A stretch of 64,000 bases of DNA from Vermamoeba vermiformis (lineage: Eukaryota). The notes below the pieces were generated by a model, which was given only the letters and a program-made list of their open reading frames with translations, did no database searches and had not been told where the DNA came from. Positions 3,469-60,425 of this stretch are shown here, one piece after another. The translations under genes were made by a program, and so were the position numbers. The stretch lies in the NCBI GenBank assembly GCA_045837725.1, contig JBEWZL010000227.1:1-64000 (forward strand), read 5' to 3'. Numbering within the stretch: the stretch's first letter is position 1; each line of letters opens with the position of its first letter.

Positions 3469-3951
3469 GAGTTAATTCTTTTTTTATTTTATTTTCCATG
3501 AACACTATATAGAATTATCCGCATTGTTAACTAAATAAACTTCTTTTTTTTATATCAAAATCACTACCTGATTTCAAATAGCTGCAATTATCGACTTTTA
3601 AGTTATTATCGCACAGTACGATTGCCAATCTATCTTATATCTATTTATTTGTATCCCTGATAATTATCAGCCACTGATTTCAATTTGAAAGCCTCCCAAC
3701 CTTGTTCTCTACGCGGACCAAAAAAAACTGCCCAAATCCACATCTGGTCTCTTTAAATGATATTGCCAGGTCTTCTGCATACACAACCATAAAGTGGAAC
3801 TCAACAACCACTGTGTCAGCTGACACCTTTTGTCCAGGAAACATAGCCTAACTCAGCAAATGAGGGGGAAATTTTTTTTATCTAATACCTCTTTAAGGTA
3901 ATTAAATTGTTAATAATAATGACCATTTACAATTTATTTACCAATTTTTAA

Positions 3952-5688
3952 TTATACATCTTTGTCACACTTTCGTTTGACTGCTTGAATGACTGGGTGC
4001 AAAATACCACCAAAGACGAGAGTACCAGCGGTAATTACAGCTATTTTCCAGTCCAACAGAGGTGTTACAGCAGTGAAGGCACAGAACGCCATGGGAATAA
4101 TGCAAAATAGAATAAGCACAAAGTTGCTCATCGGAATTCGATACGGTCGTAACAAATCTGGTTGCTAATAAAAGATTTTTTGTGAGTGGATCCGCTGCTT
4201 AGTCATGATAGTGACATACCTTATAGCGCAGCACAATGAGTGATAAGTATTCTAATAATAGACCGATCGAGTAGAAGAGCTGGTCTAGCTGAATTAAGAA
4301 CTGAAATGAGAACACGGTGCCTGCAGCCACTAACAACGAGTTGATGACGAGTGCGACCCAAGGAGTGCCGAATCGACTTTGAGCGCTCAAGAATTTCATG
4401 CCCAGCAAGTTCTTGTCACCCCATGCAGCTAACATTTGCGAGCACGTGCAGAGGTACGTGTTCAACACTCCGACTGCCTTCAAACACGCACCGATAACCA
4501 TCAAAATTTTCAGCCATTGACCTCCGACCTGAGCGTTAATTAGCAAGATATTCATCTCTTTATATGCACGTACCATGTAAGCGACATCGGGGAAATAGCC
4601 TTCAGTCCATTGGCTGTAGTCAGTAGCGATGCTTACGCCGACCAAAATAGGCAAAATGTACGTAGCAATCATGGCGACCAACACGATCATCATGGCACGA
4701 GGGTACGCTTTGTTGGGGTTCTTGAGCTCTCCTGCCACTTGAGACATGTTGTCAAATCCACCAGTGTTCCACACAATCGTCGTGATGAACAGGCCCCAAT
4801 CGAGTTCCGAGAAAGGGACCGAAGGACGAGCCAGCCAATCGTGCGGATTAATCTTTGTTATACCGAGCCCAAACATAATCAAAAAAGGCGCCAATAATAT
4901 GACGATGAAAACGCTAGTAAGTTGGAAAAAGTGACATTTAGACACGTGTCAAGTAGACATTTTGTACGTACCCTGATACTTTGCTAACAAAATCGACACC
5001 GAAAAAGTTCATGATGAAGCAGAAGAACAACACGATGAATCTTATGCCGTAGTTCTCGATGGAATCAACCGGCAGTACTTGCAGCAAATAATTCTCGAAC
5101 ATGACTGGATAGATGGCCAAATCGAACAAATTGTTGACGAACGACCAGTACGCCTCTTGAAAGGCCCAGAATGGTCCGAATGCCTCGTTGACCCACCACA
5201 CAAAGCCACCATTGTGTGGTAATGCTGTGCTAAGTTCGGCTGTCAAAAGCGCACTGCACGATCTAGTTAGTGGATTCGAAAGAACGACAAGCAATAGTAC
5301 CTTGGTAGCGACCAGATCCACGGAATTATGACCATGCCTAATAGTGCATAAAAAGGATAGCCTATTCTAACGGCATCTTCAATACCGTACGGTCCACCAG
5401 AAACTAACCGTAAATGTCAGATCGTGTCAGTCGTTGATTTTAAAACAGAATCAAAATTAAATATTCGAATTAATAAAATGTTATAACGGTAGCGATAAAT
5501 GATTTAATTTTAATATTTTAACAATAAATATTACCTGCGAAGAAAGTTAAAAATACCAATCCCCACATTGACAGCCGTTTGTTGTTATTTTGACTCGCAG
5601 GAGTCACTGCCTCTATATCTTCCGGTGCGTCGTTAACTGTGCCATATTTTTGCGACCCTATTGAACGTATTAACGGATCTTTCTCCAT
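3952..5688 (-). CDS. APC-superfamily amino acid/polyamine transporter (plant PUT/LAT-like), multi-exon
   Basis: Spliced motifs GLVFLTFFA/VSGGPYGIEDAV, TAELSTALPHNGGFVWWVNEAFGPFW, WNTGGFDNMSQVAGELKNPNKAYPRAM, SRFGTPWVAL and PDLLRPYRIP, with many hydrophobic helices. ATG at 5688. Confidence 0.9.
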
Positions 5689-6179
5689 CCAGCTCCTTCT
5701 ATTTTGCGCTGGACTGCGCACAATGTTTTTTAAAATGGTTGAGCGCAGTCGATTTGTACTATGACGCTTACGAGAGGAGTCTTGTAAGCTAGCGAAAAAA
5801 ATAAAAACGAAATTGCAAATTCTACCAGTTTGCCGCGCTTTCTGTCACCGATACAATCATAGGCTTTACCTTCAAATAGACGCGCAACTGTGTGATATTC
5901 TTTGCATGACAACGAGGAGCTAGTAAATTGGTACAATGGCCGATCTTTCGGAAACGCAATCCGCGGTATTGAAACATCTCAGCAGAAAACAAAAAAAATA
6001 TTCAAAGGTATGGCCTTTCCATATTATATGAATTTGGGCGGATCTGTGCTCTTATTGTGAATACAGAGAAAAATATCAGAAACAAGATATCATTTATTTC
6101 TAGCCGCCAAGAAACGGCATTCGCTCATTCGAAACACCTATTTTACCACAAGAAGGTGCGATTAAATTAAATTAATTTC

Positions 6180-7579
6180 ATGGAGAAAGACACCGTTGAA
6201 AGCGCTAACAAGAAGCTGACTTTTCGCAAGTACGCTTCGATCGAGAACAGTTATCTTGATAAATTCATAGAATCAATTATTAATCAAGGCCACACGGACA
6301 ATAATGCTCAGTGGGTAGCTCTGGAGAAAGGTATTTATTTTTAATTAAAATTCGCTTAAATATCAATTAATTATTAACCACTTGCCAATTCGGATTGCTA
6401 ACTGTGCAATATTAATATAGTTCACGGAGCCAATTTTTCATTCATTACTGACGGCGTGGAAATTCATTGTGCCAAACGTAGCGGATTTATCGAAGCCGAC
6501 GAAGTGTTTCACAACCACCACCTCGTGTTAGAAAATCACCGCAACAAAATATTGAAAGTTTACGCTGCTCTAAAAGAGAAGTATCCTGATCTGGTCGAAG
6601 TTGCTATTTATGGAGAACTCTTCGGAGGTAACTCTAATTTAAATCGCTTTAAAAATTAACGCAATTAACTTTCGAAAGTTCAACTAAATTATAACGCCCT
6701 TTTACTATGACTGATGGACGTTGTTTAGGAATTTATCCACATAAGGACGTTCCTGGCGGTCAGGGACTGAAGAGCGAGTCAGGAAGGTGCTTGCACGTGC
6801 AAAAAGACATCTATTATTGCCCGAACATCAATTTTTTTGCTTTCGATATTGCTGTGCCCGGAAAAGGTAAGCGAGAGCGTCCACAGCGAGAACGTTGCAT
6901 CCCGTACTCCTTGGGCTTAGAACTAATACTGCTTATCACTAGGCTATTTGCATTATGACATAGTGGAGCCTCTCTTCAGAGAGCACGGATTCTTGTACGC
7001 CGAACCGATCAGGTACGGTACCTTGAAAGAGTTGCTCGAGATCGACGTTGAAACTTTCGAATCCACTCTGCCTGCCAAGTTTGGATTGCCGCCTCTTCCA
7101 AATAACTACGCTGAAGGCATTGTTATCAAGCCAATTATCAACAAATACATGACCACGGGCGAGCGCGTCATCGTTAAAAAGAAGCGATCTACTTTCATGG
7201 AGAAAAAGCCGAGGCTGGCTCCCAAGAAAGAACTCAAAACTACTATGGCGGATAACGTGCGCGAGATGTGCGAAGAGGTCGTTACATATGTAACATTGAT
7301 GCGCTTGAAGGCTGTTATTTCTAAAGAAGGACATATCACTGCTCCCAAGTTTGGAAAGCTGCTTGGACTCTTTGCCAAAGTAATTGATAGATCTGTCTCT
7401 GTAAGCATTTAATTGACACATTTTTATCCTAGGATGCTCTTGACGACTTCAGAAAAGAGGTTGAGGACTTCAATCAACTCGAGAACGAGGATCGCAAGCG
7501 CGTGACAACCAGATTGAACAATGCTTGTTCCAAGATGATTAACGATAATAGACAAGCTATTTTGGATGGAAATTTGTAA
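6180..7579 (+). CDS. ATP-dependent RNA ligase, Rnl2 family (T4 Rnl2 / kinetoplastid REL-like), 5 exons
   Basis: Introns 6331-6420, 6628-6728, 6867-6942 and 7380-7432 give a continuous frame. Motifs: I EKVHGANFS, Ia AKRSG, III IYGELFGG, IIIa FFAFDI, IV EGIVIKP, V IVKKK, plus C-terminal RLKAVISKEG and DALDDF. Confidence 0.92.
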
Positions 7580-8289
7580 CGTTACAATAAATTAAAACGA
7601 AGGAAATAGTAATTATTATTACCTGCAGTTAATTTTTTAACACGATGGATATAACAACAACAACGTGTGTTAACTTCTGCTCGCTATTTATTACGAAAGC
7701 TTTTCCTTAATATATAACGCAGTATCACAGCGAAATTAAAAAGAGAACGGATTTAAAGTATCAGCTTTGTTTAATGTTTTACAAGGTAAGAATTCACAAC
7801 AAAGTTTAATATTAACCACATACATAGAATTATTTTTAATTATTGAAACGATGCTGCACTAGAAACACTAAATCCAAAACATTGATTTTTTAAAAATTAC
7901 GCTTGCTTCAGAAAATTTGGATTTTATTCACGACACAATCGCTTGTATTAAACACAATTATTATTGAATTTTTGTTGCAACAGTTCTGGTTTTCCGCAAG
8001 AAAAATCTAATTCTAAAAATAGCAATGCAGCAACGAGTTAATTTGACGTCTCTGAGTACTTTATATTCACAATCGGATAGAATTGGAAGAAAACTATGCT
8101 TCCGTATGCAACGGATTATTAGCAGAAAACTCGTACGAGAACGCGGAATTTTTCAACGAAACAAAGAGTCTGAAGTTTCATCGCATGACTCGGTAGGCTC
8201 GCTTAAATAGTTGAACAGTTGAAACTTATTTCATACTCTTAAATCAAACGAGTTACTTCACCTCAAAGAAATTCATACTTGCTACGAAA

Positions 8290-11280
8290 ATGAAAGCAAG
8301 TTCATTATTAATAATGATTATAGCGAGCTGTATTGCCGGCCTGACGGTTGGAATAGATATCGAACAGCTTCTCAGTCAAATGACGCTCAAAGAAAAGATT
8401 GGACAAACGACGCAAATTGAAGTACGTAAAGTTCGCTCGATCTACGTGTTCAGGACAAGTTCCTAAGCGATCTTAATTTGTAGGTTACTGTGGTAATCCC
8501 TCAAGGACAATACAACTTAGATTGGGAATTGCTTAGACGTGCAGTCGTCGATTACGGAGTCGGATCGATGTACAACCATCCATTTTTCGGTGCGTAACAA
8601 GAAATTTAAATTAAAATTGGACTCAAGATTAATTTATTATCATTTAATAGTGGGCCCGAAAGCAGGTAGGCTGCAGCACAAGTTTTGCCAACTACGGATA
8701 GAACGCGAGCATATCCGCGAAATTTCTTTCAAAAGTGATTGATGTACCCGGTGAAATCTGATTTAACTTCGTGTAGGTCGCTTTGGTTGGTATCCCGAAG
8801 ACTGGATGAACGCAATTCAGCAGATCCAAGAGACCTACTTGAATTCTACCAACTCGAAGATCCCCGTCTTGTACGGACTTGACGCTGTTATCGGCGCTGG
8901 TCATATCCTCAAAGCAGCTTTATTCCCTCACGTAAGTACAATATCATGCGAGTATAATAGCTTTAGTTAACATTGCGGGTCAGAACATCGCTCTTGCCGC
9001 AACATTCAACGAATCCATCGTCGAGCGAGTTGGTTACACGACTGGCAAAGATTCACGTACTGTTGGCATCAATTACGCATTGGCACCTGTCGCTGACGTT
9101 GGTGTTGAGCCTCGTTGGGGTAGATTTTACGAAACAGTAAGTATCTTAGTAAGCTTGAAGATCTGTGCTAACTTTGCCCAGTACGGAGACAGTCCTTATG
9201 TTGTCACGAAGATGGTTCGTGCAATTTTGCGTGGTCTGCATGGTGTCGACTCTTCTGATCGCTTCTGGCCTGCTGGAAGTTCCCTCGTTGCTTCTGCCAC
9301 CAAGCACTGGGTGGGTTACGGTCAACCCAACGGTGGTCTCGATCGTTCTGATGCTAATGTAAGCGGAGATTTCATCCGGACGACTTGTTCTAATCGAAGT
9401 GCAGATTTTGGACTGGCAACTTGAGCGATATCATTTGCGACCATTCCTTGGCGCCTTCGAAGAAAAGACGCACAGCGTTATGTTGAATTCCGGTTCAGTG
9501 AACGGCATCCCTGGCCATGCAAACAAGAAATTCAACGTAGATTTATTGAAGGGAAAACTCAACTTCACTGGTTTTACTGTTAGCGACTTCCAAGACGTGC
9601 AACGCTTGGTTTGGAAACACAATTATGCTCCCGACATTAACTCGGCTATCAAAATTGCTCTCGACGCTGGTTTAGATCTTGACATGGTTCCTTTGGACTA
9701 CACTTGGGCCGATCTGCTTTATCAAATGGTTACCAACGGCGAAATCCCCGAATCCCGTCTTGACGACAGTGTCCGCAGAATTTTGAAGGTTAAGCAGGAC
9801 ATTGGTCTTTTCGACAATCCTTATCCTTACAAAGATCGATTGTAAGTTTCGAAGCATACTTTGGCTACGATAGTTTATTAATCACTTGTAGGGCAACAAT
9901 CGGTGCTCCCGAAGACTACGCATTTTCGCAGTACGTTGCTGAAGAAGCGATTACCTTGTTGAAGAACCAGGACAACATTTTGCCGTTGGACGCCTCTCAA
10001 CCTAAGAAAGTCCTCATTACTGGACCTGCTGCCAACTCTTTGAAGGTCTTGGCTGGTGCCTGGGCCGTTCATTGGCAAGGTGCTACAGACGACTCTGAAT
10101 TCCTCGGTCAAGGCAGCACTCTCTACGATGCCTTCAACGAGTACGTCAAAGGCAAGAGTGCTGCATGGTCCGTCAACTGGGCTGTCGGAATGAACTACTC
10201 TGGTCCTCTCGCTGACTACGATAACGCCATGCAGATGGCGCGTGACTCCGACTTGATCATTTTGACAAGCGGCGAGCCTCCATACGCAGAGATGTACGAA
10301 GCTATTGATGACTTGTAAGTGTTGAATTTCAAATTGTTACGCTGTGAAATCTAACTTTGATTCCGCAGGACTCTTTACGAAGCACAATTGAACTACATCG
10401 ACCAATTGAGTGCTTTGGGCAAGCCCATTATCTTGGTCCTCGTTCAAGGTCGTCCCAGACTCTTCAACAGCGCTATCGATAAAGTGAACGCTATTCTTTA
10501 CGCTTATGTTCCTGGTGCACACGGAGCTAAAGCAATCACCAACATTATCTTCGGTGAAGTCAATCCGTAAGTTCACTGCGTATTAATCCATTGCACATGC
10601 TAACCTCGCTCGTTAGTTCCGGACGATTGCCTTTTGCCTACCCCACTGCCACCGGTCAGCTTGCTTATCAATATGGATCTTACGCGCACAATGTACAATG
10701 GCCATTTGGCTACGGTTTGTCGTACACCACGTTCTCTTACTCAAATTTGCGTGTGCCCGACGCCGCTTTTGTGAACGGAACTATGGAAGTTGCCGTGGAT
10801 GTAACCAACAACGGAACCGTTGCTGGTAAAGAGACTGTGTTCTTATATGTTTCCGAATTGTTTGCCTATCCCGACAAGCAGTACATTGACATGGTGCACG
10901 GCTTCCAAAAGATTGCCATAAATCCTGGAGAGACAACCACTGTGGTGTTCACCTTGGAGAACGAAGACTTCGCCGACGTTGGTTATGAAGGTCAAGACAT
11001 CGTCGTCAATGTCCGCGTCAACGATCAGAAGGGCTCATTCACTTTGACCCCGCGCAGTGTTGACGGCTCGGTACCTATCGGAGATACCACACCTGTGGTC
11101 ACTAACGGTCCAATCCCAACGCAGGTACCCATCACACAGTCATCACCGAACCCTAACCCTGCCATCATTACCGCACCCACTGACCCGAACCCCATCAGTA
11201 ACCGTAACGACATTTCCTCTGCTTCGCGGCTCGGCTCTGCTGCTGCACTTGGCTTAGGAATTTTGTTGTGTTTAATGTAG
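8290..11280 (+). CDS. GH3 beta-glucosidase, secreted, probably GPI-anchored, multi-exon
   Basis: Signal peptide, then MTLKEKIGQ, IPVLYGLDAV, EPRWGRFYET, KHWVGYG, GFTVSDF (nucleophile Asp), PSGRLPF and PFGYGLSYTTF. These are followed by an Fn3-like domain, a P/T-rich stalk and a hydrophobic C-terminus. Confidence 0.93.
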
Positions 11281-11561
11281 AACACAAAAGTGCGGTACCT
11301 TTTTGTAAATATTATTTGTTATTATAAACTTCAATGGATAACCAAATGTCATGTTTCCGCTTGAATCTTTTGTCGTTATATTTATGAGGTTGTTAATTAT
11401 TAATTGCTGACCTCGTTCGATTTGCCTGATATGGCAATAATTGATTAGTTTTGACAAGTCTACGAACTAATCATGGGACCTATCTACTACTACTTTATTT
11501 TTAGTAATACCAATACAAATTTTATTTTAATAATCGTAGGTCAAAAAATATAGACTGGCAC

Positions 11562-14500
11562 TCACATTATCAAGGCCACGACAAGCGCGAACAACATTAC
11601 ACTAGTTGTTAAACGAGATCCAGAAGCAACAGTGCTGCCAGGTGTAGCTGGCTTAGTACCGTCAGGTGAGGGCAAGATCTGATATGGTGCGGAGGGCTCA
11701 GTGCCAGGAGGTGGCAATTGTGCACGGTGGAACTCTACGGCGCCAAGAATGACTTCAGTGCCTTCATGGAGGATGCGCTGACCTACGGATACTGTCGTCT
11801 GGTCTGCATCGATATAGGCCACAAGCGGACCAATACGAGTATATTCATTGCTATCCAATTTGCCATTTGCAAAGACAACAGCCTCATCGTTGACGTAATT
11901 AACGAGTCCTGAACTGAGAGGCAAGGTCATGGTGTTGTGCAGGAATATCTGATACACGCCATAAGGCAACGATTCCTTTAATGGTAAGACATTAGTAAGC
12001 TTTTAAAGTAAATATAAATTTCTGTGCCTATCGCTCTAAAACGTACAAATTCGATGCGGGATTGACTTCCTGACTGGATGAGTGGTGTGCCGTAACCTTC
12101 TTTCAGCAGTAAAAATAGCACGTCATCAGCATTGTTCACGCTATTAAGATTTGGATTGACAGTCACCAGCGAGTGCTCCCCAGGCAGTGGCGAATCAACC
12201 GTGCCATCGAATGTCTTGCCTTCCCATGTTACCGTAGGACCGTTCAGATTGAACCCCTTCTCAAACGCAAATTCAGTTGAAGGCACACTGTAAAACACGT
12301 GCGTCGGAATGACGATGACCGCGCCGTCGGTGGTCGTGGCTTCTACTTTCAAATCATGAGGTTTCATTGAGAGGGGTGCAGGCAAGTCAATGCTGTGTGG
12401 GTTTGAAGTCGAAGTGCCGACCACTTGCCCGTCAAGTGTGAATTTAACACTAACTACTGCACTCGGATTGCTGAGCTCAACGCGTGCCGTGATGATATCT
12501 CTATTGGGAATGAAATCTCCATAACGAGGCCATGTGATCTCCATTCGTGACGCTGGCTCATCGAGATAGGTCTTGGGTGACGGGTTATTTGGAAGCAAGG
12601 CTTTTGTGGGATCTGCATAGGTAATTTGCACGTCCTCTAAATGCAAGATACTAGGATAAAGATTGGTGCCACCAGCTCGAATGTTGTATAGGGTCTTAAT
12701 GTCTTTAAAAGTCACATTTTCCATTGTCAAAGAAGCAGTGACTTCAGCGCCATAAAAGAAATTGGCAATATAACCGTCTTGCAGGTGAATATGTCTGCCA
12801 TCGTAGTCGGACACAATGCCGTAGTAACCTAAAGTTTCACAATTGTCTGCCCAATAATAATCTCCTTGATACTCTCCCCAACCAACAATAGGTCCATCGT
12901 TTTTGAGCATAAAATCTTTGATACGAATAACACCCGTGTGGCCGTGCACATGGATGCCACCATGATATGAACGCAAGTTAGTAATGACATTATCAGCGGT
13001 GTTGACCACGTCACCAAAACTGGCAGCACGAGGAGTGATTGCGTAGTTAATTTGGCCGTCCCATGTCGTGAACGGTTGCCATAAATAAGCTGGCTCTCCT
13101 GCCAAGGGAAGACCCTCAATATATGGATAGATGTCGTATTGGTGCGCAATCGGTTCAAAGTTAGCGCGGCCGTACCAGGCAAGGTACATCGAAAAAGCAC
13201 TTCCAGCAAAGAATCCATCGGCCAAATTGTTCGTGAACACAATCGAAACTCCGGCGATCCAATAACCCATGCCTCCGTGACCGAAATCATATTTTGCACC
13301 AACACGACCACCAGTAGGGTCAATCAAACCAGTGCCACCACCCACACCAAAAACAATATTGTTTGTAATGGTACCATATTCTGTCGATAGCTCGGTGGCA
13401 ATACCAGCACCGCCGTGGAACACGACAATATTCTTTTCAATTGTGCCCATGCAGTCATGCATAGTCATGCCCCAGCGCAAGTTGCCCGAAGGTGTGTAGA
13501 CGACATTGCCTGTCAGCTCGAAGGGAGCGCGCAAGTGATGCATGTGGAGAGCGTATCGACCGCGGTGGTTGGCTCCGACTGTGATAACGTTGCGGTTTGC
13601 ATCACGTGATGTGTCGGCAAGCAGCTCATTGGTAGTACGGCCCATCTCTTCAAAAGCGGCGTATTTGATTGTAGCATTGGTCATCAATTGTAAGGCCAAG
13701 TGACCGCGCTTCATCAATGTGTCGGGCTCCTCAGACTTGAAGACCACGTTGCGTGTTACGTATCCAAGCATGCCATTCTCGTAAGGACGGTAGTAAGTGC
13801 CGTCGAATCCTTCGTTGGATGATATCGTCATCTTCATGGTGTTGTAGGTGCCAACCAGATTGGAGGCCAGATTGATCCGTGTACCATCCACCGATGTAAT
13901 AGCAATGCGTTGATGGCGTGGTGTCATGAATAGGCCGTCATTTTTGTTCGCAAACTCCGCATCCACAGAAACCAGGAACACTTCGTCTCTGTGCACAGTA
14001 AGCGATCTGGCGAAATAAATTTGAAATATTGATTACCCTGCTCTCCAGCCACTAGGGGCCTGTTCCACGAGAATGTAATTGTCGCCGTCGTTAGCTTGGG
14101 CTATCTTGACGAAAGGTGTGTTGATCTGGCGACCAACAATGGTAACGGTACCTCCGATGGTTACAAGACCAAGACCCCACTTAAAATAATTGTTGTCATT
14201 CATTAGACCAATTTAATATTTCGTACCTGGTTAGGGTCTTCAGTGGTATCAATCGAGCCTGAAAAGATGACGGTGTGCGTAACCGAATCCGAGGGCATGA
14301 TCTCGAGTATACCAGTTTCATAAACAAATATGGTATCCAACTTCAATGTGATGCTGATAGAAGGCGAAAATATCAAAGACCCTTTGACACCAATACGGCT
14401 CACTGTGATGGTATTTTGATCGAGTACAAGCGTGGAGCCTAATTTACGAATTAATTAATCATTCCAGACTACGTTGCCGACCTAAAGAAGGCAAGGGACT

Positions 14501-34581: not shown

Positions 34582-36029
34582 ATGTTACACAATCACAATA
34601 ATAACTCAACTGTATTGGACACAGTTTGTTCGATGGTCAGCGATAAAGAGGCTAAAAGACTGGCGGGTAAATATGGCTTAGACATCCAGCTCGTAGCTTG
34701 GGAAGATAATGCTCGATCGAAGAACAGTGTATGGGGTCCTTGCATTTCAGACAGTAAGCAAAGAACTCAAAATTAAAATCATTTACTTTCCGGATTAGTT
34801 AAAAAAAATGTTACTAACCGTTCAAATTAGTGACTTTGCAAGTCAATACTCGTGCCTTACCAGTAATTCGAGCACCAAACTACACCGACTTGACTTGGGA
34901 CATCCCAATCGAAAAAATTCCTCTCGTTGTCGGCAATGAGAAAGGCACCAATTTGCGGGTGGTGACGTTGAAGGAGTATTTGAATAACTTCCGAAACTAC
35001 TTGCACAGGCCCAACAGCTGGAAGGGCAATAGAGTCTCACTGCTCGCTCCTCGCGACTCACACGTGGTGACGTCAGCGCAAGCTTGCTTCTTGCCGATCC
35101 CGAGCTCTGAAGACGCCAAGTTCAACGTTGCTATTTACAACTACCAAACGACCGCGAACAACCCTGCTGTGCTGGCCATTGTGGCCTCGAGCAAAGGCAC
35201 TTCAGCACAAGTCTTGGGCCAAAACAGTGCCATGCGCAAATTGTTCTTCAACAACAACGGTGAAAAATGCTCGTTCTTGGGTCAGCGATTGAGCGACTAC
35301 CGCATCGACCAGGGCCAGACTGAAGACCTGTCAGCACCCATGTCGCAAGAAGAGACGCAGCAGAACATGTTACTCATCATTCAAGTGCCGCTCAAACAAA
35401 AGTCGATACTTAATTACGACAAAATCACTATCAAGAGGAAGACGAACTTTGGCGCTCATATCTCTTCATCTTTAACCTACCAACAACAGAAAGAGTCCAA
35501 CGTGGAAGATGCGATTATTAGCATTGGTGAGAGTGAGGGCGAGTTCAACGAGATCAACGACTTGGAGATTGAACGCGATGAGAAGTATCCAGTGCGCGTC
35601 ACAGTGCAGTTCTACAAGGCCACGGACAATGGCGTGGTGAATGAGCAGGACATCAAGCAAATCTCCGAGCAGATCCACGGTGCACGAACGAATGCAGATT
35701 TCATTGGCTCGCTCGTGGTGGCTGGCACAACGAACAGACCCACCGAGCCCAACTTGTCCAGCAGCACTACAACAAATGACATTGCGCCGCCTTGGTGGAC
35801 CGAATTTTGGCTCGTGCACGGTCCCAACTACCCGCAGTACACAGAACAGCGTGCCAAGGACAAAGTGTTCTCTGACGGCAGATACCGAAACAGCTCGATG
35901 AACGATGTGCACGAACAAATCATCGACTTGTTGGACGAAAGTGAATCGAACGAGAACGAGCCCGCTCAGCCTTTGCTGGGCTGGTTGAAAAGTAAATTGG
36001 CCTCTATATTAGGTATTTTTGGATATTGA
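34582..36029 (+). CDS. conserved-looking protein of unknown function, 2 exons
   Basis: Intron 34754-34830 joins VAWEDNARSKNSVWGPCISD-MTL to a 399-codon open frame containing AQACFLP and FNVAIYNYQT. Confidence 0.8.
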
Positions 36030-36334
36030 TTAAATAAATGGAAATTAACGTCAACTATTTTAGTCTGACCGCGCTTGCTCTTCTCAATACGTTATCTGTA
36101 TTAGACTCAATTATGATTGACAGATCTAATCGTCACGCTTGTCAAAAGGATTGCACGCGAAGTACATATAGGAACTGTTAAAAGTCACATAATCATCAGA
36201 TTTGGTAAGCATTCTAAAAGTCCAATGTGAATTTGACGTCTCGTCAAACGGGACAACTGAGCACATCCAGTGGACAATTGAGCGTTAACCTCAAAATAAT
36301 CATTTTCATAATATTATTTTAATAGGAACACATC

Positions 36335-37684
36335 ATGTCCAAACTATTTATCATTTATTTAGCCTTCATCGGCTTGGCTGTTGTATCGTGCGATCCACAA
36401 CTCGACGCGTTGCAAGATCTGTATCGTGCAACTAACGGCAAAATATGGCGTAATAGCTTAGGATGGAACACAACAAACTACTGCTCATACTACGGCGTCA
36501 GATGCGACGGAGACAAAGTTGTTTCGTTGAAATTAATTCGAAACAATCTTCAAGGGACGATTCCCAGCTCTATTGCAAGCCTGTATTACTTGCGCAATAT
36601 TAGTTTGGCTGAAAATGTCATTTCCGGTCAGATCCCGCCTTCGATCGGCAAATTGTATTTCCTGCAAGAACTGCGACTTAGCACGAATCGATTGACTGGA
36701 CCTATTCCTATGGATGCGATTAGTGGTCTACAATCATTAGTTGAACTCGATTTGGGCTACAATGAACTTACAGGCACTCTTTCGTCCTTGATCGGCAACC
36801 TCAGCAATTTAACGAGACTGACTCTGGACAGAAACAAATTAACTGGCAAGATTCCATCGACTGTAACCAATCTCAAGAAGTTGCAGATTTTCAGTGTGGT
36901 CTACAATGCTTTTTCTGGTCCAATTCCCGACTTCTTCAGTCAATTGCCGCAGCTTTGGGGTTTATCCTTATTAGGAAATCAATTCGCCGGAACTATCCCC
37001 GACAGCATTGGCAACATGACGCAGCTCACGTGGCTTCAACTTGGCTCGAATAAATTGACTGGCACAATCCCGAACTTCATTGGATCTTTAGTGAATCTGG
37101 ATGCACTTTGGCTGAACAGCAATCAACTCACTGGTACTATACCTGAATCTATTGGCCGCTTGACGAAGATGCAGTGGCTGTATTTGGAAGCGAATCAACT
37201 CACCGGCACCATTCCTGCTTCCATCCGCAACTTGAAGCAACTTAACACCGCTCAATTTTACACCAATCAATTGAGCGGAACAATTCCTGAATGGTTCAGT
37301 GAACTACAACAATTACTGCTGCTCGGTCTCAACGACAACAAGCTCACCGGAACTATTCCAGAATCGTTGAGCAAGTGCGACAGCTTAATGTACCTCTATT
37401 TGGACGACAATAGGCTCACTGGCACACTGCCAGCATCGTTTGGCAATAAGAAGTATATGGGTAGCCTATCATTCAGCCACAATAATTTGACTGGATCCGT
37501 TCCTACTTCGTGGAGCAATCTCCCGATCCAATACCTCAAGCTTGACGGCAACCAATTAGATCACGTGTCAGTGACTGCTCCGCCGCTCTATCCATTGTAC
37601 GTATGCGATTTGAGCGACAATCCATTCAAGTGTCCGATCCCTGACTGGGCAAAGAATGATTGCAGCGCAACGTGTCAACTGTAA
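36335..37684 (+). CDS. secreted plant-type (PGIP-like) leucine-rich-repeat protein, intronless
   Basis: Signal peptide, LRRNT cap (ATNG..W..W..C.YYGVRC), many 24-aa LxxLxLxxNxLTGTIP repeats and a Cys-rich cap (CDLSDNPFKCPIPDW..C.ATC). No TM helix. Confidence 0.95.
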   Translation: MSKLFIIYLAFIGLAVVSCDPQLDALQDLYRATNGKIWRNSLGWNTTNYCSYYGVRCDGDKVVSLKLIRNNLQGTIPSSIASLYYLRNISLAENVISGQIPPSIGKLYFLQELRLSTNRLTGPIPMDAISGLQSLVELDLGYNELTGTLSSLIGNLSNLTRLTLDRNKLTGKIPSTVTNLKKLQIFSVVYNAFSGPIPDFFSQLPQLWGLSLLGNQFAGTIPDSIGNMTQLTWLQLGSNKLTGTIPNFIGSLVNLDALWLNSNQLTGTIPESIGRLTKMQWLYLEANQLTGTIPASIRNLKQLNTAQFYTNQLSGTIPEWFSELQQLLLLGLNDNKLTGTIPESLSKCDSLMYLYLDDNRLTGTLPASFGNKKYMGSLSFSHNNLTGSVPTSWSNLPIQYLKLDGNQLDHVSVTAPPLYPLYVCDLSDNPFKCPIPDWAKNDCSATCQL

Positions 37685-40821: not shown

Positions 40822-41525
40822 TTAATTTAGCGGGAAGAATTCAGATTGAGCGTCGACTTTGCGCCAAGTAGGACGTGAGGATATCTCTTGCCACCAGCGC
40901 ATAACATTAGGGAATTTTTTGTATAATTCAGCAATTTGCGTTACTCGAGACATCAAGATCTGAGTATCAGGCAAGTACACAATATCTAGGCTACTGTTAA
41001 ACATATATTAATATTTTTAATATTAGATGGCTTACCGGCAATAGTAAAATGTTCAGCGGCGATGAACTTTGATTTTGCCAATCTCTGATCCAATACTTCG
41101 AGAGCTTGAACTAATCTGACTTCAGCGTCTTTAACTTTATCTTCATTCGTTCCTTGGCCAAACAGCGGATAAAAAACCAATTCAGCAGCCAACTCTTGAG
41201 CAGCACAGTAATAAGATTGCTCGATCGAGATCCATTGATCAACAATTGCGCGTGCTTTCGGGTCAGCAGGATAGAGAGTACCATTACGGTCATATGCATT
41301 CACTAAGTAGCGAATAATAGCACGTGACTCGTAGAGTTGGAAATCAGATCCGTCTTCCAACACTGGCACTTTGCCCCAAGGCTGCTTTGCGAGGTAATCG
41401 GGCTTCTTCATTTGCTCAGCACCAATAGTGATGAACTCGTATGGAAGATTGAGCTCTTCAAGAGTCATCAATACGAATCTGGTTCTGAGCGATGCACGCA
41501 GACCGTAGATCTTGATTGAAGACAT
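40822..41525 (-). CDS. glutathione S-transferase (phi-like), copy 1, 2 exons
   Basis: QPWGKVPVLED, LYESRAIIRYL, VDQWISIE, FTIA-DIVYLP and RWWQEISSRPTW. Confidence 0.95.
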
Positions 41526-41744
41526 TTGAATAGTGGGTAGTACGTTGATTGAACAAATATTCAATTGAATAACGTAATTTTTAGGCTTTTAGCGCGCCGC
41601 GGAAGTGTCAGGAAGATTTCAATTCACACGGAGAAACGGGATAATCCCAGCTGCCCTAAATTCCAAGAATTTGAAATGGATCTGCATTTATTGATAATGA
41701 GACCTGTTTACAAGCGATAATACTCGTGCAGTAACTGGTCAATT

Positions 41745-42450
41745 CTAGAACTCGGATTGAGTATTGACTTTTTGCCACGCAGCACGAACGGAGATTTCTT
41801 TCCACCAACGGATTACATTGCTGTGTTTTTCGTACAGCGCGACGTATTGAGGCAAGCGAGCCAAGATGAACTGAGTGTCAGGCAAGTACACGATATCTAA
41901 AAGTATGCCGTTAGTTAAAGACTAATACAAAGCGTGTGCAATAGGTGAAAAAGTACGTACCAGCAATGGTGAAGCGATCACCGCCCATGAACTTCGACTT
42001 GGCCAAGTGTTTGTCCATTACTTCGAGTACTTTAGCCAATTGCACTTCAAGGTCTTTAACCTTGGCCTCGTTAGCGGTCTTGCCGGACATCGGACCGAAG
42101 AAGAGCTCGCCGATCAGCTCATTGGCAACGACGTAGTATGATTGCTCGATCGATATCCATTGGTCGACAACGGCTCGTGCCTTTGGCTCGGCAGGATAGA
42201 GAGCGCCAGTGCGGTCATATGCGTTGACCAAGTAGCGGATGATAGCACGTGACTCGTAAAGTTGGAAATCAGATCCGTCTTCCAAAACTGGCACTTTGCC
42301 CCAAGGCTGCTTTGCGAGGTACTCTTGCGACTTCATTTTTGCAAAGTCGATGGTGACGAATTCGTAGGGCAAAGCAAGTTCTTCGAGAGTTGCCAGAACA
42401 GCTCGAGTTCGGAGAGATCCGCGCAGACCTAAAACCTTGATGGAAGCCAT
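41745..42450 (-). CDS. glutathione S-transferase (phi-like), copy 2, 2 exons
   Basis: Same motifs and same intron position as copy 1; tandem paralog. Confidence 0.95.
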
Positions 42451-43370
42451 TTCTTTGGGATAAATGTGGTAAGTTGTTATTACTTGTGTTTGTGTTGTTT
42501 TGTTGCTGTTGAGATTGAATTTAAAAGCGGATCTGCTCGCTATTTATACTTTGATTACGGAACTTGGAAGCTTCCAAATAGTAACTTCTCGAAAGCCCTA
42601 AAACTGAAAATAGTAGCATTTAAGTTTTTCGCGCAAAGATTAGAAGCCATTACTAAATTTGGAAGTTTCTAAATCTTCGAATTTCCATAGTAGCTTCCAA
42701 ACGGTTTCTATTTAAAATCTTTGCTTCGAAATACAAATAATCGCCGCGGCGGAGGTGCTTCCGATAGTCGGACTAACATTTCTTTAGGTTCTCAACAATG
42801 TTAGGAAAAGAGTCTGTCTGCGGGTTTGGTCATATTTTCAATATATATCAATCATTCCAGTCGTGGATCAGGTTTTGTAGCCGGATCAGGTTCGGTGATC
42901 AAGGAATTCGTAACTGCACCTCAACAAATATTCCTCCAAAGCGTGTAATTGAAAGAAGACCACGTTGTTCGACTAAGATCCCGAGGATGCGCCAGACCTT
43001 CGCTCCAAAAATCATTCTAGGCACTGCTCGTTACGTACAATGTAGCTCTAGAATGTTAAACACTCGTAAGTTTTCCTACAGCGACTACGGTATTACTGGC
43101 CGGCCTAACCTTCGTGAAATTTGGCAATTAACGAATTTGATTTACAAGATTTAAAATCCAACCACACTCACGTTAAATCCGATATTCAAAAGAATACAAA
43201 GAAATGCGCGAGCATTTTCTATTTTCATTTTTTAGCTCGAAATTATTTTACGAGCACAAGTTTGAACGTCAATCACTGTGACAGCTTTTTTATTTGTTTT
43301 TTCCACGCGTACTTATTTATTGATTTATTTATTTATAGCAACAGCACAAATCTGCTGCTAATTCAGCCAA

Positions 43371-46300
43371 ATGAGAGCTGCTTGGTTGAATATCGCGTGC
43401 TTCGCGGCACTACTCGTACTTGCTAACGCCGAATGCCCACATCTGACCCCTGGCTTATTGCCTTGGAGCAGTGCAAGCTCGTGGACTTCTAACAGTGTAC
43501 CCACAGGTAATTACGCACTAAATTAAATTAATGGCGAATCAAAACAAATTTATTTCGGCTGATCTGAGTAGTCGGCAGTTTAAATGATGTCTAATATAAA
43601 GAACCTGTGATATTGATTACTAAAAAATAATATACAGCCGGTGGTGACGTTATTATTCCTACTGGAAAGAAGATCTTGCTGGATGTGTCCCCGCCCGATC
43701 TTAATACGCTGACTATTGAAGCGGATGCCCAATTGGTTTGGTCTCCTGCTGGCGATTATGAAATACGCTCTAACTACATCCTCGTTAAAGGTAAGCCTGA
43801 TGATTCAATTGGAATATGATTCGATATTGTCCAGGATGAAATTTATCTTGCGAAACTGACACATTTGTCAACCCGAAAAAACTTCGACATTGTTTTTAAT
43901 CTTTTTAACTGTTATATTAATATCTTAGCTAGTGTATCCCTCTAATATTAATGTATTTCAGGCCGCTTTGATATCGGCAGCGAAGATTGCAAGTTCGACC
44001 GCAAGGCCATCATTACCTTATTAGGTAAAGTTGGCACGGGTCCTACTGTCACAGGATTCGGTCGCAAGTTCCTAGGTGTCGCCATGGGCGGAACAATTGA
44101 ATTGCACGGTGCAGATCCTTCACCAGCCTGGACTAAGCTTGCCAAAACAGCTCACAGCGGCGTGTCAATGGGTGGTGCCTCTTTAAGCACCCTTGACCGT
44201 GGCTTTAATATTGCAGGTATTTATCGCGAATCTTAGCAACGGTTAGATTGTGACACAGATTGTGAGCGTAACTTCAATTTGTGCGCCAAGATTTGACACG
44301 TGTCAATTACTCGTCACTACGACAACTTCTTACCAAGCAATTACTAACCGCTATTTACCGCTAGTGTTCAGTCCTGAAGGAGTTAAGCTCGACTACCGCG
44401 CATTCGATTTGCTCGACAATTCGACAGTGCAGAACACGATGACCGAGTTTTTGAACCAACAACCACAAGGCTCGATCATTGCCGCAGGAATCTCCGACGC
44501 AATCTCACCGAACACCGAAATCTCCGATGCTACTTTCCAAGCTTTTGAAGCCTTTGGTGCCAAACAGATCCGTTCACGCAACTTCCGCGACTCTTACGCA
44601 CTGATTGGTGTCAAGGGTGGCGATGCCGTTGAGAACTACGCTGTCAATGGCACCGTTGCTACTATTTCACGTGAATTAAAATCCAGTACGTAACTTCCAG
44701 AGTTAAAAACAAAATTTTTTAATCAATGGCAGATGCAGGTCAGAACTTCAGAGTCGAAGTTCAATCATTGGGCTGGCTTCAAGGCCCGCCATGGCCCTTC
44801 ACTAGCATCTCATTGACCTTCTTCGGTGAAACCATCCTTGAGTTCGTCGATGAAGTGAACTGGAAGGCAGGTGACAAGATCGTTTTAGCTGCCACAGACT
44901 ACGCTCCAGAGCAGTCTGAAGAGGCCACACTCGTCGCTTGTCCCGAGTGCTCTCGTCGCCAAGTCAAAATCTCACAGATGCCCAAGTACATGCACTACGG
45001 AGAGATTACTGACTGCGTTGATGAGCGTGGTGAAGTCGGTCTTTTGACACGCAACATTGTCGTGCGCGGTGAAGTCGAAGACAACTGCTACGGGCTTGCT
45101 GAGTGCGACCTGCTCAAGTATGGTATTGACTTATACGGCGGTACGTAGTTAAGATTTGGTTGTGATGTGATGGCGAGTATTTGACACGTGTCAAACAGGT
45201 CACTTCAAGGTGATGAAGGGTTTCGTCAATGCACACATTGAAGGTGTTGAATTCTACAAGATGGGTCAACAGATCCTCGGCAAGTAAGTGACATGTAATT
45301 ACAATGCTCGAGTTCGTTTATTGACACTTTTGACACCTGTCAGTTACCCCGTTCACTTCCACCTGTGCGGTGATGTTGACGAAATCGGTGGCTACTCACA
45401 ACCAGCTTATGTCAAGAAGAATTCAATTCACCGCTCGCTCTCTCGTTGTGTTACTATTCACGGGTACGTGCTTCATGATTGTTGACATTTTTGCTGACAT
45501 CTTTTCAGTACGAACGGTTTGTTCGTACAAGACAACGTGGCCTATGATCACATTGGCCATTGCATCTTCTTTGAAGACGGCATTGAACGACGTAACGTGA
45601 TTGATCACAACTTGGCTCTTTGGACTCGCTTTGGCACTTTGTTGCCCACTGACCGAAACTGCGACACTTGCAAGGCAATGAAAGCGCCTCTTTCTAACCC
45701 AGATACGGTCTGTAGCGAGTGTTTGGCGCTCTCGACTTATTGGCTCACAAACCCCGACAACGTCCTCACGAACAACGTCGCTGGTGGCTCTGACTTTGTC
45801 GGCATCTGGTACATCTTCCCTGAACGTCCCACTGGCGAGTCCGAAGCCTTGGGTAAGACATTACTGATATCTTATGATTACTCCCTAGCCTAACAATGTG
45901 TAGGTATTCAATTGGGCATCAGACCCGCTTGGACTGCAATGGGTGTGAACGCGAACAACACCGCACATTCGAATAGAAACAACGGCATGTTCATTGATAA
46001 CGGCATTAAGGCTGGTGATCAAACACAAGCGTCCATTGAACAACACTTGGGCATGATTGGTGCACGCTTCAATCCTCGTGTCAACTTCACTGACAGAAAC
46101 AGCGTATGTCTCACTCGCATTAACAATAGTCCTTTCTGACCCTAGTTATCAGGCACGTGCTCCTGCGATCGTGCAAGGCTACAGAGCGTACAAGAATGCC
46201 AATCGCGGCGCTTGGGTCCGTGGTGGTGACATTTGGTTCGAAGATTCGGTCTTCGCTGACAACGCCATTGGCCTCACGCTTGCTAGTGAAGGGTAAGGAC

Positions 46301-59146: not shown

Positions 59147-60425
59147 CTAGTTTGATGCACATTGTGCATGACACACACTTGAGATCCAGTTTGGAATTGG
59201 GCACTTAAGCATGTTGTGATCCATCCTACAATCGTACAAGCTAGTTGGTTTATTCATTGTTGGATTGACGCCTGATAGTTGATTATATTGGAGTCTTAAG
59301 GTCGTAAGATTATTGAGTTGTACGAATGATGATGGAATAGTGCCTGATAGTTGATTGTTGTTGAGCCATAATTTCTGAAGATTATTGAGTTGTCCCAACG
59401 ATGATGGAATAGTGCCTGCTAGTTGATTGTTGTTGAGATATAAGTTATAAAGATTGGGTTTTCCCAATGATGATGGAATAGTGCCTGATAATTCATTGTG
59501 GTCAAGATATAAGTTATAAAGATTATTGAGTTGTCCCAAAGATGACGGAATAGTGCCTGATAGTTGATTGCCGTCGAGAAGTAATTCTTCAAGATTATTG
59601 AGTTGTCCCAATGATGGTGGAATAGGACCTGATAGTTGATTGTTGTTAAGCCATAAGTATTGAAGATTATCAAGTTGTCCCAACGATGATGGAATAGTGC
59701 CTGATAATTCATTGTCATTGAGGTTTAAGTCTTTAAGATTATTGAGTTGTCCCAATGATGATGGAATAGTGCCTGATAGTTGATTTTTGGCAAGTGTTAA
59801 GATTGTAATATTATTGAGTTTTCCCAATGATGGTGGAATAGTGCCTGATAGTTCATTGTAGGAGAGAAGTAATTCTTCAAGATTATTGAGTTGTCCCAAT
59901 GATGATGGAATAGTGCCTGATAGTTGATTGCTGTTGAGCCATAATTTTTGAAGATTATTGAGTTGTCCCAACGATGATGGAATAGTGCCTGATAGTTGAT
60001 TGCCGTCGAGCCATAATTTTTTAAGATTATTGAGTTGTCCCAATGATGGTGGAATAGTGCCCCTTAGATAATTTCTGCTGAGAAATAACACAGTAAGATT
60101 AGTGAGTTGTCCCAATGATGATGGAAGCGTGCCCCTTAGAAAATTTCTAGGGAGACCCAAACTGATTATCTAGATTAATGTTAGTATTGTAATTGAGTTT
60201 GGAAAGAAATACTACCTGATTGTTTGAATCACACTCAACGCCGCTCCATTTGCACTCACTCAAATTTGAAAGCCATCCGTCATTGATTTCCCAACCAGTT
60301 CCGTTCGTAGCCTTGAAAAATTCCACCAATATATCTCGCTGATTGAAAGGTTTTGCTTGGCTTGATGAGATCAGAAGCGCTGAAATTACAAAAAGCACAG
60401 CGCCGGAAAACCACAGTTTTACCAT
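59147..60425 (-). CDS. secreted plant-type LRR protein with about 13 highly homogenised repeats, 2 exons
   Basis: ATG at 60425 with signal peptide and LRRNT cap (ATNGTGW..W..CKWSGVEC); intron 60215-60170; 72-bp repeats; Cys cap CRMDHNMLKCPIPNW..C.AQC. Confidence 0.93.
59275..60145. repeat. 72-bp coding tandem repeat (LRR modules)
   Basis: Recurrent + strand block GATTATTGAGTTGTCCCAA(T/C)GATG(A/G)TGGAATAGTGCCTGATAGTTGATT with a 72-bp period and one 69-bp unit. Confidence 0.95.

Follow-up and report, generated by a model that had tools for sequence, protein, structure and literature searches.

A spliced and expressed nuclear gene for an Rnl2-family RNA ligase in Vermamoeba vermiformis

We analysed a 64,000-nucleotide stretch of DNA from Vermamoeba vermiformis (NCBI GenBank assembly GCA_045837725.1, contig JBEWZL010000227.1, positions 1 to 64,000 of the forward strand; hereafter the window), and the evidence supports the presence, at 6180-7579 on the forward strand, of a genuine nuclear gene, spliced and expressed, for a complete RNA ligase of the Rnl2 type. 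We regard it as probable that this is a functional, spliceosomally spliced gene for a free-standing Rnl2-family ligase, most likely of the cytosol or nucleus, and its descent fits an old transfer followed by full domestication as reflected in its introns, its expression and purifying selection on its coding sequence. The activity of the product is likely to be the ATP-dependent sealing of 3′-OH/5′-PO4 nicks in duplex RNA.

Gene structure, splicing and expression

Direct reading of the sequence gives five exons and four introns between an ATG at 6180 and a TAA at 7577-7579, and the joined exons form 1080 nt with no stop inside the frame and encode a product of 359 amino acids (Table 1). The GC content of the successive introns is 0.23, 0.30, 0.50 and 0.30 against 0.44 in the exons, making introns 1, 2 and 4 AT-rich, while the exon value is in line with that of the window. 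Intron 1 cuts the codon of Val51 right behind the motif I lysine, Lys50 (E-K / V-H-G-A-N-F). A preliminary description of the locus, made from the sequence alone, had reported an intact frame with four spliceosomal introns, one of them inside motif I directly after the adenylated lysine; both observations were borne out, with exact coordinates and with the removal of the introns in transcripts.

Table 1 Features of the ligase gene, with positions in the window
Feature	Position	Strand	Description and evidence
5′ leader, start approximate	6156..6179	+	Spliced X5 contig starts at 6156, zero read depth further upstream; in-frame TAA 6168-6170
Exon 1	6180..6330	+	Met1 to base 1 of codon 51; ends with E49-K50 of motif I, Lys50 AAA at 6327-6329; junction seen in spliced X5 and X8 contigs
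Intron 1	6331..6420	+	90 nt, GT..AG, phase 1, GC 0.23, within motif I; absent from X5 and X8 contigs; equivalent intron absent from 9 and 8 reads of X21 and X23
Exon 2	6421..6627	+	VHGAN (remainder of motif I), motif Ia K69-R70, motif III GE116LFGG; RNA_ligase 3.9e-7 (profile positions 10-74), TIGR02307 4.4e-15 (56 bits)
Intron 2	6628..6728	+	101 nt, GT..AG, phase 1; absent from X5 contig
Exon 3	6729..6866	+	Insert loop (YPHKDVPGGQGLKSESGRC...VQKDIYYCP) and motif IIIa F158-D159; TbREL1 alignment
Intron 3	6867..6942	+	76 nt, GT..AG, phase 1, GC 0.50; absent from X5 contig and from 5 and 1 reads of X21 and X23; sister-species genomic gene calls P0127-P0130 run through it
Exon 4	6943..7379	+	Motif IV E223, motif V K244/K246, basic linker, first half of C-terminal domain (R286); T4_Rnl2_C 1.8e-7 (profile 5-47), RNA_ligase end 0.015 (below cut-off), TIGR02307 1.2e-23 (84.2 bits)
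Intron 4	7380..7432	+	53 nt, GT..AG, phase 0; absent from X5 and X8 contigs; kept in ortholog transcript P0001, spliced in P0126/P0129/P0133/P0134
Exon 5	7433..7579	+	Second half of T4_Rnl2_C-type domain (D312), TAA 7577-7579; T4_Rnl2_C 1e-6 (profile 48-82 of 82)
3′ untranslated region, short	7580..7601	+	X8 contig stops at 7601, adapter letters after; AATAAA 7585-7590

Public sequencing runs were ranked on window positions 5900-7900, and four of them (X5, X8, X21 and X23) were aligned to the window. Two contigs of X5 (organism code B), at least 99 % identical to the window, span 6156-7571 and are missing, between the predicted GT..AG borders, precisely the four introns (90, 101, 76 and 53 bases), and an X8 contig of the same level of identity from a separate study (organism code C) lacks introns 1 and 4 and ends at 7601; since these contigs are intron-less, we suggest that both runs represent cDNA. 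The other two runs, X21 and X23, are recorded as RNA-seq under the species label of the best DNA-matching run, and contain reads spliced across introns 1 and 3 (Table 1). Their identity to the window is only 90-95 %, so their source must be a diverged strain, a diverged species or a paralogue. Read depth is confined to about 6156-7601. The 4 differences between the X5 and X8 contigs and the window are all synonymous, and among the 38 listed differences of X21 and X23 from the window, to which 14 more can be added, synonymous ones number 27, as do those at third codon positions. This excess of synonymous differences points to purifying selection on the ligase gene. Absence of expression or of splicing, which the preliminary description had named as an outcome that would refute its reading, is countered by both the intron-less contigs and the spliced reads.

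The protein databases contain a cluster of orthologs 88 % identical to the window product, including the full-length spliced members P0126, P0129, P0133 and P0134 of 360 amino acids and an intron-4-retaining form, P0001. The entries P0127-P0138 are prokaryote-style gene calls on long genomic contigs that start within intron 3, cross exon 4 and continue into intron 4; the sister species accordingly shares the positions of these two introns. These read-through calls are the evidence for intron conservation beyond the V. vermiformis gene; two metagenome scans for sister-species genomic loci, with P0134 and P0130 as queries, gave no confirmed locus. Near-identical pieces of the gene were also observed in water metagenomes and in runs that carry other organism codes, at least five in number (B-F), with a small share in a root metatranscriptome. 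It seems that the organism often accompanies others under whose labels the runs are filed, and that one species label covers diverged lineages.

Domain organisation, catalytic residues and predicted fold

Searches with external tools utilized single exon translations or the 88 %-identical ortholog (P0134/P0001), and the joined window protein was analysed in scripts. Three of the five exon translations (exons 2, 4 and 5) gave colinear Pfam matches to the RNA_ligase and T4_Rnl2_C profiles, while exons 1 and 3 as single translations gave none, and exons 2 and 4 also match the NCBIfam family TIGR02307 ('RNA ligase, Rnl2 family') (Table 1). The ortholog matches PF09414 (RNA_ligase, 1.5e-20, residues 45-246) and PF18043 (T4_Rnl2_C, 9.8e-20, residues 270-346), and both P0001 (201.7 bits) and P0004 (199.9 bits) lie narrowly above the TIGR02307 equivalog cut-off of 197.15 bits. 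The window protein accordingly divides into a nucleotidyltransferase (NTase) domain at about residues 44-245 and a helical C-terminal domain of the T4 Rnl2 type at about residues 269-345.

Comparison of the ortholog with proteins of solved structure using phmmer matched T4 Rnl2 over its full length (3.9e-29, query 16-311, both domains), followed by the Trypanosoma brucei editing ligase TbREL1 (1xdn; 2.1e-26, query 43-254), for which the match covers the NTase domain only, including the insert after GELFGG, and by the NTase fragment of T4 Rnl2 (6.9e-22). An AlphaFold2 model of the ortholog built on a 60-row alignment has a mean predicted local distance difference test score (pLDDT) of 91.9 and a predicted template modelling score of 0.88, with a beta-rich N-terminal domain and helices at 270-356; the insert loop is poorly modelled (pLDDT 62 at ortholog residues 131-140). 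The best Foldseek match of this model is T4 Rnl2 with a nicked duplex (2hvr, 1.5e-21, full length), followed by REL1 (3.1e-18, template modelling (TM) score 0.77 on the target, root-mean-square deviation 3.7 Å, 31 % identity, NTase domain) and the T4 Rnl2 NTase domain (1.2e-17, TM score 0.81), with Rnl3, Rnl5, Rnl1 and Trl1 much weaker at 7e-9 or worse.

T4 numbering was transferred through RnlB of phage RB18, which can be aligned residue for residue with the T4 chain. The T4 residues E34, K35, H37, N40, K54, R55, F65, E99, F119, D120, S170, E204, K209, K225, K227, R266 and D292 are kept in the window protein, where they correspond in the same order to E49, K50, H52, N55, K69, R70, F80, E116, F158, D159, S206, E223, K228, K244, K246, R286 and D312. 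These include Arg55, which in T4 Rnl2 contacts the 5′-PO4 (PMC6379707), and the R266-D292 pair, which forms a salt bridge (PMC4599027). Motif I (K-x-H-G-x-N) is present as E49-K50-V-H52-G-A-N55 across the junction of exons 1 and 2, and R70, E116, F158/D159, E223 and K244/K246 are kept in the window protein and in all 12 homologs compared, save for a single Tyr in place of F119 (T4 numbering). The insert after GELFGG (YPHKDVP ... VQKDIYYCP ... FFAFDI), absent from T4 Rnl2, aligns with TbREL1 and is common to bacterial family members, and its residues Y123, H125, Q145, Y150 and P152 are invariant or nearly so in the 60-row alignment. The nucleotidyltransferase motifs and Rnl2-type C-terminal domain first described from the sequence alone, and the resemblance of the insert to REL1 and bacterial Rnl2s, stand on the strength of the Pfam matches (RNA_ligase and T4_Rnl2_C, colinear over the exons), the TIGR02307 matches, the residue map and the TbREL1 alignment.

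Family distribution and phylogeny

An 8-row profile searched against 1.84 billion proteins matched 6288 cluster representatives at E ≤ 1e-3, a number that falls to 2129 at E ≤ 1e-30, and the named matches are overwhelmingly from Bacteroidota and other bacteria. A one-genome-per-species set gave 483 pattern matches, 457 of which were confirmed. Phage records gave 1396 matches, mostly from T4-like phages and below 60 % identity (29-33 % among the matches listed, save one at 41.8 % with 25 % coverage), and IMG/VR gave 55 matching loci. A major capsid gene of nucleocytoplasmic large DNA viruses (NCLDV) was found above the cut-off on the L025 contig and in the L020 bin, and only below the cut-off on the L029 contig. 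Outside the ortholog cluster, identity to the window protein is only 40-45 % even among its closest relatives, which include the transcripts P0003, P0004 and P0015 and Bacteroidota proteins alike; for bacteria and viruses the closest relative reaches only about 40 %. Named eukaryotic members include the Amoebozoa Arcella intermedia, Flabellula baltica and Cochliopodium minus as well as Colponema vietnamica and Paratrimastix pyriformis, plus one unnamed EukProt entry, and the Atlas contains a cluster of 79 members, 70 % of them eukaryotic and most often assigned to Mucoromycota.

A 57-row tree, rooted on T4-like phages, was inferred under LG+C20+F+G4 by posterior mean site frequencies; its rows were picked by hand, leaving out L038, from 96 that took in every second bacterial locus and no partial matches, and it is a tree of bacterial, viral and protist Rnl2 sequences apart from kinetoplastid REL, Diplonema DpRNL and Naegleria. 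The window protein and its ortholog grouped with support of 100/100, within a 12-row clade of eukaryotic or eukaryote-like rows only (99/93) that includes Arcella, Cochliopodium and Colponema. Its sister is a 10-row clade (96/87) containing Flabellula, Paratrimastix, an unnamed transcript, the viral contigs L025, L026 and L029 and a Chryseobacterium/Chitinophaga/Reichenbachiella group. The two clades are joined as 22 rows with support of 95/91, leaving the main Bacteroidota clade outside and the viral rows L020/L023 and L032/L047 unresolved at the base. A quick 96-row tree (LG+G4) agrees except in the position of L038. This giant-virus row, on a long branch, stood beside Colponema in the eukaryotic clade of the quick tree but leaves it under the site-heterogeneous model, the clade then being eukaryote-only (Shimodaira-Hasegawa approximate likelihood ratio test 92).

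An old transfer into eukaryotes followed by full domestication fits a clade nested in a mostly bacterial and viral family, and a transferred origin is plausible because the family is overwhelmingly bacterial and viral and the sister group contains both giant-virus contigs and Bacteroidota. The preliminary proposal of a domesticated gene possibly acquired from giant viruses or bacteria holds as regards domestication and the plausibility of transfer; the phylogeny it called for places NCLDV and bacterial Rnl2 sequences around a well-supported eukaryotic clade but leaves out REL1/2.

Neighbourhoods of bacterial homologs

We scanned 63 same-strand open reading frames (ORFs) out of the 89 nearest flanking ORFs of bacterial Rnl2-family genes, leaving out 26 on the opposite strand. 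To our knowledge no function has been established for these bacterial genes. The neighbours are mixed and include an Eco57I methylase, an AbiEii-type AAA_21 protein, WYL/WCX, two HIRAN, Schlafen/AlbA_2, PARG, NUDIX and Metallophos proteins, with no recurring partner gene among the 63 and only one of them Pnkp-like. In the flanks of loci L056-L135 genes of the conflict-system type (Eco57I methylase, AbiEii-like AAA_21, WYL/WCX, HIRAN, Schlafen/AlbA_2, microbial PARG and Imm33-like) often lie beside the Rnl2-family gene, which hints at a role in phage-host conflict for the bacterial members. One locus from a metagenome-assembled genome of Chloroflexaceae (L128, 1798-4967) has a second RNA_ligase gene upstream of the Rnl2-family gene (1798-2706) and a gene for an HD-phosphohydrolase and AAA_33 kinase downstream (3801-4967), and looks like a bacterial RNA-repair cassette.

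Predicted activity, location and alternative roles

By homology, Lys50 would attack ATP to form a ligase-AMP intermediate, AMP would be moved to the 5′-PO4 of a nick in duplex RNA or in an RNA:DNA hybrid with an RNA 3′-OH strand, a step for which the C-terminal domain would be required, and the 3′-OH would attack the resulting AppRNA, sealing the nick. The three-step pathway, the role of the C-terminal domain in step 2 and the specificity for duplex nicks are described for Rnl2 (PMC3884662, PMC4408790), and Rnl2 enzymes require 3′-OH/5′-PO4 nicks (PMC3884662). Our guess at the substrate is guide- or template-directed nicks with such ends, as might arise from RNase H-like or Argonaute-type cleavage. 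A stop codon in frame with the ATG (TAA, 6168-6170) precedes it by 9 nt within the transcribed 5′ leader and makes a longer N-terminus impossible; the N-terminus itself is acidic, with E2, D4 and E7 among its first 8 residues, and similarity to bacterial proteins begins at residue 14. Together these features make a mitochondrial presequence very unlikely, in agreement with the preliminary description, which had seen none, and since there is no room for one the enzyme is most likely cytosolic or nuclear. Elsewhere in the eukaryotic clade, the core of P0027 is preceded by an N-terminal stretch, basic and about 48 residues long, that could be an organelle-targeting signal in another lineage, while the extension of the Arcella protein is acidic.

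Breaks made by ribotoxins need end-healing before ligation. The preliminary description had suggested that the enzyme counters ribotoxins from prey, in which case it would form one half of an RNA-repair pair, with a Pnkp-type end-healing enzyme encoded elsewhere, and would reseal tRNA or rRNA cut by toxins of prey bacteria or competitors. The relatives of the organism are phagotrophs exposed to bacterial toxins, the Chloroflexaceae locus described above pairs an Rnl2-family gene with a second RNA_ligase gene and an HD and AAA_33 kinase gene, and T4 mends a ribotoxin break by means of Pnk and a ligase; that ligase is however Rnl1 rather than Rnl2 (PMC3884662). Rnl2 moreover prefers duplex nicks with 3′-OH/5′-PO4 ends, a scan of the 62 ORFs in the window that reach 100 amino acids or more revealed no Pnkp or other kinase, phosphatase or RtcB, and the bacterial neighbourhoods offered the single Pnkp-like gene mentioned above. 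We consider this role unsupported and unlikely. A similarly low probability attaches to a role in DNA repair or replication, in which the enzyme would seal nicks with a ribonucleotide-ended 3′-OH strand, such as RNA patches left by repair polymerases in RNA:DNA hybrids. T4 Rnl2 seals hybrids with only two 3′ ribonucleotides, and such a role is cited as speculation for Rnl2 and Rnl5 enzymes (PMC4408790); the basic linker KKKRSTFMEKKPRLAPKK could serve nuclear import. Localisation is however purely predicted, and alignments place the same basic linker in bacterial homologs, so it need not be a nuclear localisation signal.

A mitochondrial RNA-processing ligase akin to the kinetoplastid editing ligases would fit the closer match of the ortholog NTase domain to TbREL1 than to T4 Rnl2 (96.1 against 81.3 bits) and recalls the extended N-terminus of P0027, but the in-frame stop within the leader, the three acidic side chains in the first 8 residues and the bacterial homology from residue 14 argue against import. 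The C-terminal domain is also of the T4 type, which binds the nick itself, whereas that of REL recruits an oligonucleotide/oligosaccharide-binding (OB)-fold partner (PMC4599027), and we find this reading very improbable. Least credible of all is that the gene is not a host gene in use but a bacterial contaminant, or else a giant-virus gene, newly integrated and incidentally transcribed. The family is mostly bacterial and viral, giant-virus contigs fall in the sister clade, and an amoeba genome is reported to contain a 'viral-type RNA ligase' in a set of virus-derived genes of which roughly half are silent (PMC5203793). This reading is nevertheless already contradicted by the four spliceosomal introns removed in transcripts, two of them (3 and 4) present in the sister species, by an exon GC matching that of the window, by cellular neighbours with introns of their own (genes for an amino-acid permease and a GH3 hydrolase), by the excess of synonymous changes and by the distance to the nearest bacterial or viral relative.

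Several points weigh against a domesticated and functional free-standing Rnl2 ligase and temper our confidence in it. The runs with exact splicing, X5 and X8, are only guessed to be RNA, while the recorded RNA runs, X21 and X23, derive from a 90-95 % identical relative or paralogue. The Pfam and NCBIfam scores and the fold come from exons and the 88 %-identical ortholog rather than from the joined window protein. Within that protein T39 of T4 Rnl2 is replaced by Ala, F66 by His, and K189 falls in a gap, and the list of essential T4 residues is drawn largely from Shuman-laboratory mutagenesis. The bootstrap correlation of the 57-row tree is 0.980 and thus not fully settled, 6 of the 12 rows of the eukaryotic clade are unnamed contigs, 1.1-1.4 kb long, that were assumed to be eukaryotic, EukProt transcriptomes can carry contaminants, and the tree leaves the root and the direction of transfer undetermined. 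Our literature search also found no biochemical data on the window protein or its clade.

Genomic surroundings

Domain scans of the 62 window ORFs place the ligase gene between an amino-acid permease upstream (4202-5366, reverse strand) and a multi-exon GH3 hydrolase downstream (8936-11277). The window further encodes F-box proteins, a CN-hydrolase, an inositol polyphosphate kinase, a phosphatidylserine synthase, a BTB protein, plant-type or ComC-like leucine-rich repeat (LRR) proteins, two glutathione S-transferases and ILEI/CEMIP. The 62 ORFs include neither a polynucleotide kinase, a phosphoesterase or RtcB nor a viral hallmark gene, and tRNA and Rfam scans of the 64-kb window gave no matches. 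The flanks of the ligase gene are ordinary cellular genes, and it is not part of a viral island.

A number of other features of the window were observed. An uninterrupted ORF of 684 amino acids at 11981-14032 (reverse strand) has a bacterial Ig-like (Big_7) domain and is possibly a transferred gene; the GC content around it is 0.46-0.48 (profile 10001-14000) against the usual 0.38-0.43 of the window. Two adjacent and similar glutathione S-transferase genes at 40989-41588 and 41914-42543 (both reverse strand) form a tandem duplication, and two long plant-type LRR proteins with LRR_8 and ComC-like LRR matches, Cys-rich caps and signal-peptide-like starts are encoded at 36326-37681 (forward strand) and 59150-60169 (reverse strand). 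ILEI and CEMIP beta-helix domains occur in neighbouring ORFs at 44247-45890 (forward strand, GC 0.48-0.49) and probably belong to one multi-exon CEMIP/TMEM2-like gene, while a 403-amino-acid open frame at 34818-36026 (forward strand) gave no Pfam match and no usable Atlas match.

Comparison with known ligases

The window protein resembles T4 Rnl2 (gp24.1; PDB 2HVQ, 2HVR and 1S68) in its NTase and helical C-terminal domains (PF09414 and PF18043), which match over the full length in both sequence and fold, and in 16 of the 19 residues compared, the adenylated Lys among them. It differs in that identity is 30 % over 309 aligned positions, that T4 Rnl2 lacks the insert of about 30 residues after motif III and is the product of an intron-less phage gene, and that the T4-like phage sequences form the outgroup in our trees. 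The cellular role of T4 Rnl2 itself is stated as unknown (PMC3884662). Members of the bacterial Rnl2 family (TIGR02307, mostly Bacteroidota) agree with it in length, in having both domains and in carrying the insert behind GELFGG, with about 40 % identity, and the ortholog scores above the equivalog cut-off of that family; the window protein nevertheless groups with eukaryotes outside the main Bacteroidota clade and its gene has introns, while the bacterial loci are varied and often defence-like. The Rnl2-like genes of giant viruses (Nucleocytoviricota) also encode both domains, with 27-37 % identity to the profile query, and those on L025, L026 and L029 fall in the sister clade, but other sequences are closer to the window protein. 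Rnl5 (Naegleria NgrRnl, Deinococcus DraRnl) is likewise a nick-sealing RNA ligase found in amoebae with an NTase core (Foldseek match to 5cot at 1.9e-6; about 246 columns aligned with NgrRnl). Rnl5 has an N-terminal OB-like domain and no C-terminal domain (PMC4408790), an arrangement opposite to that of the window protein with its C-terminal domain and only 13 residues before the core.

TbREL1 (REL1/MP52; PDB 1XDN) has an NTase domain with the same insert loops but is mitochondrial and part of the editosome, while the window protein has a T4-type C-terminal domain and no presequence. The C-terminal domain of REL is described as recruiting an OB-fold partner, KREPA2 or KREPA1 (KREPA2 in the case of REL1), rather than RNA (PMC4599027); it is absent from 1xdn, and the contrast between the two C-terminal domains is drawn from that published description. 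The five Rnl2 paralogues of Naegleria gruberi and DpRNL of Diplonema papillatum, compared here by description only, are nuclear-encoded and biochemically uncharacterised Rnl2 relatives from free-living protists. DpRNL is much shorter (last residue Y203), with a two-helix C-terminal region (PMC4599027).

Rnl2 ligases have been called 'scarce and scattered', with few eukaryotic examples and a role known only in kinetoplastids (PMC4599027). Eukaryotic members already reported include five Rnl2-family members in N. gruberi (PMC4408790, PMC6052137), one Rnl2-family gene in Diplonema (PMC4599027), an Rnl2 entry among the laterally transferred genes of anaerobic ciliates in a 2026 paper (PMC13198582) and a 'viral-type RNA ligase' among the virus-related genes of A. 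castellanii (PMC5203793). Biochemical work on an Rnl2 from eukaryotes other than kinetoplastids did not turn up in our literature search, which did not extend to most subscription journals. The novelty claimed in the preliminary description was thus overstated, since protist Rnl2s had been reported in Naegleria, Diplonema and ciliates; a eukaryotic subfamily, which that description had set as a possible refutation if widespread and already characterised, does exist, and its biochemical characterisation was not found. The finding is solid, but the gene is of a kind to be expected in the genome of a free-living phagotroph.

A possible link to kinetoplastid editing ligases

All seven tested members of the 22-row clade score higher in phmmer against the NTase domain of TbREL1 (81.5-112.2 bits) than against that of T4 Rnl2 (43.3-81.3 bits) (Table 2). 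The order is reversed in both of the two proteins nearest the main Bacteroidota clade, with 62.7 bits to REL1 against 74.0 to T4 Rnl2 in one and 64.0 against 81.2 in the other.

Table 2 Scores of clade members against the two NTase domains (phmmer, bits)
Protein	REL1 NTase	T4 Rnl2 NTase
Window ortholog	96.1	81.3
Arcella	81.5	55.8
Cochliopodium	96.1	52.5
Colponema	112.2	59.0
P0003	87.1	71.5
Flabellula	88.5	73.7
Giant-virus contig L025	82.6	43.3

We tentatively suggest, while regarding it as rather doubtful, that this clade of eukaryotic and giant-virus Rnl2s may be the stock from which the kinetoplastid editing ligases came. The window protein would then represent a pre-editosome type, with a REL-like catalytic domain and loops and a T4-type, nick-binding C-terminal domain that was later swapped for one recruiting a partner. 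The lead consists of the asymmetry of phmmer scores, the tree being one of sequences other than those of REL, Diplonema and Naegleria. Our literature search found no broad Rnl2 phylogeny, and the one that it did find is limited to Excavata (PMC4599027).

Significance

The clade is a record of genes moving between bacteria, giant viruses and phagotrophic protists, and it may bear on the origin of the editing ligases. A cellular role outside the trypanosome editosome is known for no Rnl2 ligase, that of T4 included (PMC3884662, PMC4599027). The V. vermiformis gene offers a tractable case, being intron-bearing, expressed and under apparent purifying selection in a free-living protist of a culturable type with relatives in several amoebae, and knock-out or localisation could therefore be informative.

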